From a virus: DNA of 42,338 nucleotides. Positions 31,941 through 33,861 of this stretch are shown here, one piece after another. Both the position numbers and the translations under genes were made by a program. The stretch lies in UHGV virus genome UHGV-0127092; one strand, 5' to 3'. Numbering within the stretch: position 1 is the first letter of the stretch; each line of letters begins with the position of its first letter. Below the pieces are notes generated by a model. That model saw only the letters and a program-made list of their open reading frames with translations, did no database searches and was not told the DNA's origin.

Positions 31941-32119
31941 TTTTAGTGGCCTGATGAGACGTTTGGGTGATGGGCAAGGTGTTCTGGTCGGCGCATAGCT
32001 GGTGAAAAAATTATTTAATGCGGTGTATTGGCTGATTGTAACCCCATGTAACATCTTGCCGTCACCATTTCGGTGGTTAGATTTTTAATAAAAAAAACAA
32101 ATGTATAGCAAGGTTTTTT

Positions 32120-32599
32120 ATGGATAAAATTAATTACCCACCCCTGTTTGAGCCAGGGTTCCATGACATGGATGAAGCTGGATTAAAATCGTATTGTGTC
32201 GATTGCTTTCCTTCATCATCCAGGCGAGGCATGCTATACTGTAATTTTATACAGCTACTCGAATCTATTCGAGAATTATCTGCTCAATATGGCTGTTTTA
32301 CAGAAATATGGGTTGATGGTTCATACACCACGTCTAAACCAGAGCCTGATGATATTGATATTTTGTTGGTATGTGACTATAGCAATATAAACTCAATACC
32401 TGTCATGCTTCGGGGCCGCGTCGATAATTTGCTTGACCGAAACTACATCAAACAAAACTACAAAATTGATGTCCTACTACTCATGAAGAATTTAGATGAC
32501 CCTAACTATGATTATGAGTACTGGCGTAGCTACTGGCGCGGTTGGTTTGGTTTTGATCGCAGTGAAAACCCGAAAGGGTTAGTGAGGATTTTTTTATGA
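32120..32599 (+). CDS. Minimal nucleotidyltransferase-fold protein (Pol-beta superfamily signature), first gene of an AT-rich two-gene operon
   Basis: 159 aa; VDGSYTTSKPEPDDIDILLV matches the hG[GS]-x9-13-DhD nucleotidyltransferase signature; AT-rich relative to flanking phage genes (by eye); immediately downstream of cI. Confidence 0.6.
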   Translation: MDKINYPPLFEPGFHDMDEAGLKSYCVDCFPSSSRRGMLYCNFIQLLESIRELSAQYGCFTEIWVDGSYTTSKPEPDDIDILLVCDYSNINSIPVMLRGRVDNLLDRNYIKQNYKIDVLLLMKNLDDPNYDYEYWRSYWRGWFGFDRSENPKGLVRIFL

Positions 32600-33528
32600 A
32601 TGATAAATCAATGTTTAAAAATTGCGATAAACGCATTGATTTAATTCAAAAAGAAGTCGATGCAATGAAGCAAAACAAAACCAGGTCCTTTGCTGACATG
32701 CTTCTTTATCGCTCCATGGATTCTCATCTGAGCGATTTGAAGGCCGAAAAATTAAAGCAAGATAGTCGGCACCCACTTATCGATTTTTTTGAGCTGCGGC
32801 TGAAAGGCTCTGAGGTTGACTTTGGCTCTATTCCTTTAGAGCTGCTTGGGGCTATTTCAACAAATCTTGCAGCGCTAATACAAAGAGCAACACACAAAAT
32901 TGCCTCAGGCAAGGACTCAAAAAAAGTTCCCTACGACGTGAAAAGCTCCTTAAACCTCAGGCTGGCTGATTTATCCCCTGGGTCTACAAAATTGGGCGTC
33001 ACCTTCTCTACAGGAATAGCAGAATTAGTAGAAACAGTACCCAGCAAGGCTGTAAAAGGCATATTCGATTTGTTGTTAAGCGATGACGACAACAACTTCA
33101 TGAATCACGTCGCTGAAATTGGATACAATTCCACTGTAAGCCTTAAGAGAATCGTAGAGGAATGCGATAAACACAACTTAACATTTGATGCAAGTTGGAC
33201 CGGTCCATTTAGTAATGGCACCAAGGTGGCAACTATTGACTCCAATAAAATTAAGTACTTGGTGAGTAGACTTACATCAACCATTTCATCCCCTCCCATT
33301 ACTGAAACGGTTACAGGCGAACTGGTCGTTCTATCCAAATATGGGAAGCTGGAGCTTGATGTTGGTGGTGAACATTTAAAGGCTTCCTATCCGATTGAAA
33401 TGCTAGATTTAATACAAAAAAAACACAAGGTCGGACAGATTGTTTCTCTTTTAGTGGAGACTACTGAGATTCACAATGATCGCATAGGTCTGTACCGTAA
33501 AAACCATCTTGTTAAATCGGTTCTTTAA
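32596..33528 (+). CDS. Hypothetical 310-aa protein, second gene of the operon (candidate effector/partner)
   Basis: ATGA start/stop overlap with the upstream gene; no motif recognised, no obvious transmembrane segment; followed by tandem terminators. Confidence 0.6.
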   Translation: MNDKSMFKNCDKRIDLIQKEVDAMKQNKTRSFADMLLYRSMDSHLSDLKAEKLKQDSRHPLIDFFELRLKGSEVDFGSIPLELLGAISTNLAALIQRATHKIASGKDSKKVPYDVKSSLNLRLADLSPGSTKLGVTFSTGIAELVETVPSKAVKGIFDLLLSDDDNNFMNHVAEIGYNSTVSLKRIVEECDKHNLTFDASWTGPFSNGTKVATIDSNKIKYLVSRLTSTISSPPITETVTGELVVLSKYGKLELDVGGEHLKASYPIEMLDLIQKKHKVGQIVSLLVETTEIHNDRIGLYRKNHLVKSVL

Positions 33529-33535
33529 TATCTCA

Positions 33536-33561
33536 CCCGGCCACCGCGCCGGGTTTTTTAT
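33536..33561 (+). terminator. Rho-independent terminator after the two-gene operon
   Basis: CCCGGC-CACCGC-GCCGGG followed by TTTTTTATTG. Confidence 0.6.
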
Positions 33562-33643
33562 TGCCCACCCATAAAGCCATCCTCCATTCTGCCGATAACT
33601 ATCCAGCCTGAAGCTGATAACAATAACTATCGCAACACTACCT

Positions 33644-33667
33644 GCCCGCCCGTGCGGGCTTTTTTAT
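33644..33667 (+). terminator. Second tandem rho-independent terminator
   Basis: GCCCGC-CCGT-GCGGGC followed by TTTTTTATTG; same trailing motif as the first terminator. Confidence 0.55.
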
Positions 33668-33861
33668 TGTCCTTTCCGCACTATCTCAGCTGCATCCCTG
33701 TTCACACCCTTACCTATCACGTTTCCCGTTTCCTTCCGGTACCGTTCCAGCTTGTCGATGATGTTTTGCTGGGTCATAGGTAAATCTGCCAGTGACAACT
33801 CCATGACCGCCCGCCCCATGGCGTGAACCATCATGTTCACTCTTTCTTCATCCAAGTCCAT
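33664..33861 (-). CDS. Small hypothetical protein divergent from the pL-like promoter
   Basis: Track ORF 33664-33915; shorter start (MDLDEERV) preferred because AAGGAG lies upstream. My hand reading of this stretch disagreed with the track by one nucleotide, so the start is uncertain. Confidence 0.35.
   Translation of the reverse strand: MDLDEERVNMMVHAMGRAVMELSLADLPMTQQNIIDKLERYRKETGNVIGKGVNRDAAEIVRKGQ

Follow-up and report, generated by a model that had tools for sequence, protein, structure and literature searches.

Introduction

In the operons of HepT/MntA, a type VII toxin-antitoxin (TA) system, a small nucleotidyltransferase (NTase) of the Pol-beta superfamily is encoded first and its gene overlaps that of its partner. 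MntA neutralises HepT by oligoAMPylating a hydroxyl side chain (PMC13000451), and suppression of a toxic partner by the NTase is common to three characterised two-gene systems with a small NTase, namely MntA/HepT (PMC13000451), CloB/CloA (PMC12265719) and HalB/HalA (PMC13276650). In Clover, the accessory Pol-beta NTase suppresses its toxic partner via the inhibitory nucleotide p3diT, and mutants of the NTase are toxic (PMC12265719). In Hailong, the partner stays off as long as a short DNA made by the NTase is present, and this DNA is removed by phage enzymes (PMC13276650). Here we describe a two-gene cassette, ORF1 and ORF2, in the virus genome UHGV-0127092, of which the whole analysed stretch of 42,338 nucleotides is referred to as the window. 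The cassette lies directly after the repressor gene cI, in the slot where phage lambda carries rexAB, and encodes a minimal NTase followed by a soluble partner.

An earlier note on this DNA had taken the pair for an undescribed system. This does not hold, as both proteins match profiles of PDC-M63, ORF1 also falls within DUF6932, both belong to PHROG families and the cassette is present in phage mEpX1. PDC-M63 is one of 145 untested 'phage defence candidates' that were added to PADLOC through the 'guilt-by-embedding' approach of Payne et al., which takes its PDC candidates from cassettes found inside BREX, DISARM or type I restriction-modification (RM) systems (10.1101/2024.01.29.577857). The pair is known already as a catalogue entity, sequenced since mEpX1 and tested once with a negative result. 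This analysis adds no new entity. What is new is the anatomy of a catalogued candidate: an OB fold and an invariant serine in the partner, the boundaries of the cassette, strict pairing, recurrent genomic positions and a complete NTase catalytic set.

A catalogued pair in the slot of rexAB

ORF1 (32120-32599, + strand, 159 aa) and ORF2 (32596-33528, + strand, 310 aa) share the 4-nt ATGA stop/start overlap that had been read from the sequence (TTATGAATG). Against the models of PADLOC-DB v2, ORF1 matches PDC-M63A (PDLC04744) at 1.8e-41 over residues 1-158 of 159, and ORF2 matches all six PDC-M63B models, the best being PDLC04749 at 6.4e-45 over residues 22-304. The PHROG families are phrog_9194 for ORF1 and phrog_6603 for ORF2. 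As in PDC-M63, A precedes B, adjacent and co-oriented, and nothing separates the window pair from that system. By profile and gene order, ORF1 and ORF2 are its A and B proteins, agreeing with it in every sequence feature considered. The enterobacterial prophage clade scores lower on these models (~150 bits), while other members reach E-values down to 1e-151.

Alignment with lambda places the pair in a 1.6-kb low-GC cassette that replaces rexAB in a lambdoid prophage, between a conserved linker from the end of cI and a terminator of the rexB type. The two-gene operon in the rexAB position that the earlier note had proposed is borne out, since both open reading frames are confirmed and both flanks align. 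The left edge of the cassette is the linker at 31945-32001 (+), which is ~95% identical to lambda 37196-37252, comprising the last 26 nt of lambda cI and the cI-rexA spacer. This linker is common to the window, lambda, mEpX1 and E. coli HCP8S3 as far as ...CATAGCTG, past which lambda enters rexA, whereas the window, mEpX1 and the E. coli HCP8S3 prophage enter the leader of ORF1. The window's own cI-type repressor gene (31173-31940, +; Peptidase_S24 at 5.2e-19, phrog_4 transcriptional repressor at 5.5e-46) shares 83% nt identity with phi80 cI and ends at 31940; the linker is therefore a relic left by recombination. Within it, 31945-31970 preserves a remnant of the final codons of a lambda-type cI (…GTGGCCTGATGAGACGTTTGGGTGA) just 3' of the stop of the phi80-like gene. 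Judged by alignment, this remnant marks the recombination joint by which the cassette came behind the window's repressor.

Two tandem terminators had been proposed after the pair. Both fold well: T1 at 33535-33560 (+; hairpin 33535-33554 plus T-run, -13.7 kcal/mol, z -2.96) and T2 at 33644-33665 (+; hairpin 33644-33659 plus T-run, -12.2 kcal/mol, z -3.15). T1 is simply the conserved lambda-type terminator, as it aligns with the one directly after rexB (lambda ...AACCCGGCCTCAGCGCCGGGTTTTC; AACCCGGCC..GCGCCGGGTTTT), and it forms the right edge of the cassette: the megablast match with mEpX1 starts at 31945 and ends at 33572. T2 has no aligned counterpart in mEpX1, HCP8S3 or lambda, and is a window-specific feature outside the shared cassette. 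With both flanks homologous to those of lambda rexAB, the ORF1-ORF2 pair is therefore an allelic replacement of rexAB. Furthermore, the cassette is mobile: the window, phage mEpX1 and E. coli HCP8S3 each carry a different repressor in front of it, yet their copies agree at 99.5-99.9% identity. Of 5426 complete E. coli genomes, 17 contain it with a coverage of at least 80%.

The pair had also been described as more AT-rich than its surroundings, and its composition agrees. The guanine-cytosine (GC) content of the cassette (31945-33572) is 0.407, against 0.509 for the whole window. Stretches of the same size average 0.510 (standard deviation 0.034); the cassette is their minimum, and the 0.6% of them with equally low GC all overlap it.

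The A/T-rich leader of ORF1 (32002-32119, +) does not differ between the window, mEpX1 and E. coli HCP8S3; ahead of the ATG, it has AAGG as a weak ribosome-binding site. Neither a promoter-like site nor a significant hairpin was found between cI and ORF1; the leader hairpin at ~32053-32082 is no better than shuffles (z -0.11). For this reason the pair is presumed to be transcribed with cI in the lysogen, like rexAB, which is the simplest reading. An Rfam scan of 31800-34400 gave no match. Within ORF1 there is a promoter-like site, CTGTCA-17-GATAAT (9/12), at 32400-32428 (+). Such sites are not more numerous across the region than in shuffles, so this one may be chance. It recalls the internal promoter of lambda rexA, which drives rexB.

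The likeness to RexA/RexB is one of position: the same slot after cI, before the same terminator and upstream of pL, with homologous linkers and, presumably, the same lysogen expression. The proteins themselves are unrelated in sequence, with an hhalign probability of 0.1% for each of the two comparisons, and unlike RexB, which is a membrane protein, neither ORF1 nor ORF2 has a membrane segment.

ORF1, a minimal nucleotidyltransferase

ORF1 matches the Pfam family DUF6932 (PF22014) with 87.3 bits against a gathering cut-off of 27, residues 8-157 of the protein covering 7-141 of the 142 profile positions. The motif by which it had been proposed as a minimal Pol-beta NTase, VDGSYTTSKPEPDDIDILLV, occupies residues 65-84. 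Over 48 homologues with identity down to 34%, G67, S68, D78 and D80 are invariant and D117 is conserved in at least 90%. These residues supply the hG[GS] element (G67-S68), the [DE]h[DE]h element (D78-I-D80) and the third carboxylate on the next core strand (D117), the full set by which Pol-beta NTases are recognised. In the AlphaFold2 model, which has a predicted local distance difference test score (pLDDT) of 96.5, the catalytic residues are placed on strands 60-66, 79-86 and 116-123, as expected for a Pol-beta NTase core. Weak Pfam matches among the 48 family members point in the same direction (Polbeta in 32, DNA_pol_B_palm in 31, NTP_transf_2 in 28). The tail, R136-S-Y-W-R-G-W-F-G-F...E149, is distinctive and at least 90% conserved.

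A Foldseek search of the Protein Data Bank (PDB) returned minimal nucleotidyltransferase (MNT) antitoxins (2rff, 7ae9, 7ae2, 8xeh, 7bxo), CdnC and AadA as the best folds, all of them weak matches (E 2e-3 to 0.1, TM ~0.3). Motif, conservation and model together identify ORF1 as a divergent minimal Pol-beta nucleotidyltransferase with a complete predicted catalytic set. Elsewhere, a 132-aa protein fragment on a 569-bp contig (P0167) carries precomputed matches to both CYTH (PF01928) and DUF6932, and could be a fusion with, or a neighbour of, a triphosphate-tunnel enzyme.

ORF2, a soluble partner with an OB fold

ORF2 is known from profiles of defence candidates and phage proteins. Pfam and NCBIfam searches found no family for it, and a Pfam scan of 138 relatives found no recurring one. 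An exhaustive profile search returned 268 clusters at 50% identity, with full-length members of ~300-330 aa. Conservation was scored over a broad set, the 138 relatives at 20-30% identity, and a close set (n=45). The earlier note had seen no membrane segment in this protein, and there is none, the maximum Kyte-Doolittle mean over 19 residues being 1.38.

In the structure model (pLDDT 80.5), two helices (10-25 and 32-56) precede an alpha/beta region (62-228), and the C-terminal unit of five strands plus a helix (229-309) corresponds to an OB fold (residues ~229-310). This fold is of the type seen in SSB, RPA, RuvA and the anticodon-binding domain of aminoacyl-tRNA synthetases, with mostly basic residues at positions 251 and 278. 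The strongest conservation lies in the middle region. S130 is invariant in all 138 relatives, G129 and W201 are conserved at 99% and G77 and G176 at 98%, and the family carries the signature LDLRLAGxxxGSTRLxITGxxxPDLFGxS. G129-S130 sits in a beta-hairpin modelled with a confidence below 50 pLDDT. The B protein is shown to be a soluble protein with a helical N-terminus, a domain without a Pfam model whose invariant Gly-Ser lies on a poorly ordered hairpin, and a C-terminal OB fold.

Residues 62-146 of ORF2 (window 32779-33033) also cross-match two other candidates, PDC-M32A (40 of the 138 relatives, best 7e-8) and PDC-M02B (12 of 138). On these profile matches, PDC-M63B, PDC-M32A and PDC-M02B seem to have a domain in common, one for which Pfam has no model and in which the invariant Gly-Ser lies. 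A profile search with residues 58-165 alone, aimed at PDC-M32A-like proteins, returned fragments only.

Several assignments of ORF2 were considered and rejected. As the earlier note had surmised, it is not HEPN: the sole Rx4H match, R39..H44, is not conserved (of the 45 close relatives 20 keep R39, as do 20 of the 138 distant ones), and among the 138 relatives HEPN_AbiU2 and HEPN_Toprim_N are matched once each, neither being recurrent. A second NTase, suggested by G129-S130 followed by acidic residues, is contradicted by the position of the Gly-Ser at the tip of a beta-hairpin and by the lack of a DxD, the broad family having PDLFG with a single Asp. There is no pattern of invariant Lys, Asp or Glu that would support a PD-(D/E)xK, Toprim or ligase/capping-type enzyme. 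The sole basis for a SAVED/CARF-like middle domain was a PDB sequence match at E 1.1.

Pairing and genomic neighbourhoods

In 25 of the 26 loci examined, B comes immediately after A in the same orientation, with membership of the pair confirmed by profiles (E 1e-31 to 1e-165); a profile search of genome contigs with the close alignment gave 5 loci. Adjacency and co-orientation persist down to ~20-25% identity, and all 48 A-relatives and all 138 B-relatives match PDC-M63 models. Named relatives include proteins from Vibrio and Desulfoferrobacter, and all are annotated 'hypothetical protein'.

All pairs from Enterobacterales (Escherichia, Providencia, Proteus, Citrobacter, Silvania, Biostraticola and an Erwinia phage) lie directly downstream of a phage repressor and are followed by N or kil. 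L021, a distant pair of metagenomic origin whose A protein is 40% identical to ORF1, is likewise behind an S24 repressor. Other distant pairs lie next to type I RM and Phd/YoeB, next to a NACHT/STAND protein, beside a giant DUF4011/AAA_11/AAA_12 helicase and DUF433, within a mobile element carrying a methyltransferase, Lar and RadC, or at an unremarkable chromosomal site. Twice the pair is found immediately downstream of imuB/dnaE2 on the same strand (L007 2399-7372 and L026 1286-6143), in two metagenomic genomes that differ widely, with a GC content of 0.45 in one and 0.71 in the other and no more than 27% identity between their B proteins.

The sole DUF6932 gene without a B partner among the 26 loci (L025 3438-3902) follows a 65-aa ORF and a 360-aa protein with a weak RES-domain match, and insertion-sequence genes (rve, HTH_38) are adjacent. 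Either the pair has been disrupted here or this gene has a different partner.

Other features of the window

Upstream of cI and divergently oriented are a Cro-like gene (30843-31088) and a cII-like gene (30581-30802). On the other side of the cassette, between T2 and a pL-like promoter, an 83-aa ORF on the opposite strand (33664-33915, -) matches phrog_3975 (unknown function) at 9e-35 and is not part of the shared cassette. A near-perfect 41-nt inverted repeat at 33969-34012 overlaps a promoter-like site, TTGACT-17-AATAAT, and is presumably the oL/pL of the window's immunity type. Downstream of it, at the expected position of N, is a 70-aa ORF (34314-34526; phrog_5305, unknown function).

Comparison with known NTase systems

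The pair is not HEPN-MNT, CBASS, Hailong or Clover, where the comparison of partners fails, nor is it RexAB, with which it has no homology; it may still work like the NTase-restrained systems. HepT/MntA shares with it a small Pol-beta NTase paired with an adjacent partner gene, and the best solved folds of ORF1 are MntA antitoxins. ORF2, unlike HepT, is not HEPN and has no conserved Rx4-6H, its fold instead combining coiled helices with an alpha/beta domain and an OB fold. ORF1 also differs in belonging to DUF6932 with an invariant RSYWRGWFGF tail, and AMPylation of ORF2 would be a hypothetical extension by analogy.

Hailong (HalA/HalB) is likewise a two-gene system, and the OB fold of ORF2 would suit an oligonucleotide ligand. 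HalA, however, is a membrane ion channel, whereas ORF2 is without a membrane segment. No Hailong protein was among the best sequence or fold matches listed. In Clover (CloA/CloB), CloA is an HD-domain dGTPase, whereas ORF2 has no HD or dNTPase match in Pfam, PADLOC or the PDB. CloB was cloned downstream of CloA in the expression constructs, whereas the NTase gene comes first here.

CBASS differs in both components. The earlier note was right that ORF1 is not a full-size CD-NTase: it matches no CD-NTase model and has 159 aa against ~315 aa for the CD-NTase chains among its fold matches. ORF2 lacks a SAVED, STING, TIR, patatin or transmembrane domain. AbiE/MenAT, in which a DUF1814/AbiEii NTase is joined by an AbiEi-type partner, was also considered and rejected, as neither protein nor any of their relatives has such a Pfam or PADLOC match.

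Possible functions

The leading hypothesis, which we advance tentatively and at less than even probability, is a lysogen-expressed exclusion or abortive-infection module in which the NTase restrains its OB-fold partner. A and B would be expressed with cI in the lysogen, where A would keep B inactive. By analogy with the AMPylation of HepT by MntA, A might nucleotidylylate Ser130 of B. Alternatively, A might follow the NTases of Hailong and Clover, whose products are inhibitory ligands, and make a short oligonucleotide that would occupy the OB fold of B. On sequence conservation and the model, the S130 hairpin as acceptor or the OB fold as ligand site are both possible targets of A. Infection would remove the restraint, and the freed B would bind single-stranded nucleic acid and block the replication of the phage (or of the cell).

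The NTase is cast as the restrainer because the best PDB folds of ORF1 include the MntA antitoxins 7ae9, 7ae2, 8xeh and 7bxo, and because it is the NTase that suppresses the toxic partner in the three characterised systems. A role in defence is supported because pairs outside prophages adjoin RM, NACHT/STAND and helicase genes and because PDC-M63 was defined from cassettes embedded in BREX, DISARM or RM systems. The earlier note had likewise seen a candidate defence or abortive-infection module in the pair; that idea stands as the leading hypothesis and is already catalogued in PADLOC as a candidate, but the single test was negative.

Several observations weigh against this hypothesis. When prophage-borne PDC-M63AB was deleted in E. 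coli NILS69, plating and liquid-culture lysis by 10 virulent phages were unchanged (PMC12409345). The pair had been picked in that study because it was prophage-located and was called never previously verified (PMC12409345). A literature search found this deletion as the only functional test of PDC-M63, though a newer name or test is possible, and no papers naming DUF6932, the RefSeq protein ids, the PHROG ids or the PV3405xx phage records. In addition, no toxin, nuclease, pore or NADase motif could be recognised in ORF2, nor does it have a membrane segment; the role of B as effector is therefore purely a prediction. The OB fold is a general binding fold, from which we infer nucleic-acid binding by B. 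Modification of Ser130 is conjecture, and the invariant serine could equally be structural or catalytic. The structural likeness of ORF1 to MntA is weak (E 2e-3 to 7e-3, TM ~0.3). Finally, the two imuB/dnaE2 adjacencies hint at a link to DNA damage rather than to defence and, taken with the constant site behind LexA-like repressors, at one to SOS-type loci.

A bolder form of the restraint hypothesis is possible, if doubtful: PDC-M63 may be a new kind of NTase-controlled immune module, in which the DUF6932 enzyme would act on its partner either by covalent nucleotidylylation of the invariant Ser130 or by supplying an oligonucleotide to the OB fold, and which, expressed from the repressor operon, would be aimed at superinfecting temperate phages. 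If the module does target temperate phages, the negative NILS69 test would be explained because only virulent phages were used.

It is unlikely, though still the best of the alternatives, that the roles are reversed, with the NTase as the effector and B as a nucleic-acid-binding specificity or sensor subunit whose OB fold would present a 3' end (of tRNA, phage single-stranded DNA or RNA) for A to extend or block by nucleotide addition. Such an arrangement would resemble MenT/AbiEii-type NTase toxins or a split CCA-adding-type enzyme. The complete catalytic set of A, the resemblance of the OB fold of B to those of SSB, RPA, RuvA and aminoacyl-tRNA synthetase anticodon-binding domains, the absence of a toxin motif from B itself and the strict coupling of the overlapping genes would all fit. 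NTase toxins are much larger than the 159-aa A protein, however, and neither DUF1814 nor any other NTase-toxin family of Pfam matches A. The folds closest to A are MNTs of the antitoxin type, and the invariant serine of B would be left unexplained.

We consider it distinctly unlikely that the pair is a TA-like addiction or stabilisation module, or other selfish prophage cargo, with no role against other phages. The overlapping two-gene layout with an MNT-like first gene is what such a module would have, some pairs lie in mobile contexts beside other TA pairs, and the sole defence test was negative. The NILS69 result can be turned either way: that the whole pair is deletable fits a TA module, but no addiction phenotype was shown in either direction. 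The constant place in the lysogenic cI operon, a site of exclusion genes, and the RM/BREX/DISARM-embedded origin of PDC-M63 favour phage conflict instead.

A role as modulator of the DNA-damage or single-stranded DNA response or of the lysis-lysogeny switch, for instance by tuning prophage induction or acting on RecA/single-stranded DNA intermediates, seems to us just as hard to credit as addiction. Prophage pairs are always behind LexA-like S24 repressors, including the distant L021, the imuB/dnaE2 arrangement recurs in two very divergent genomes, and the OB fold of B would be at home in such a process. But the other contexts (RM, STAND, helicase, plain chromosome) have no SOS link, the expression logic of a cI operon is opposite to that of the SOS regulon, and nothing in the sequences of A and B connects either protein with RecA or LexA.

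Least probable of all is a miniature CBASS-type signalling system, in which infection would prompt A to synthesise a nucleotide second messenger, with B as its receptor or effector: the NTase fold is common to CD-NTases, CdnC is among the weak fold matches, the PADLOC 'Cyclase' model is reached at 0.003 by a single one of the 48 A-relatives and the conserved Arg/Ser-rich sheet of B could bind a nucleotide, but A is about half the length of the CD-NTase chains among its fold matches and matches no CD-NTase model, and in B neither SAVED, STING or CARF nor any known effector domain is present, its only SAVED match being the one at E 1.1.

Implications

If the proposed restraint of an OB-fold partner by a DUF6932 NTase were validated, it would add a new type of partner, and perhaps a new regulatory chemistry in the form of serine nucleotidylylation or an OB-bound oligonucleotide, to NTase-controlled defence as represented by HepT/MntA, Hailong, Clover and CBASS. 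A validated function would also show that the lambdoid rexAB slot is an exchangeable bay for exclusion cargo, with the conserved linkers as its bounds.

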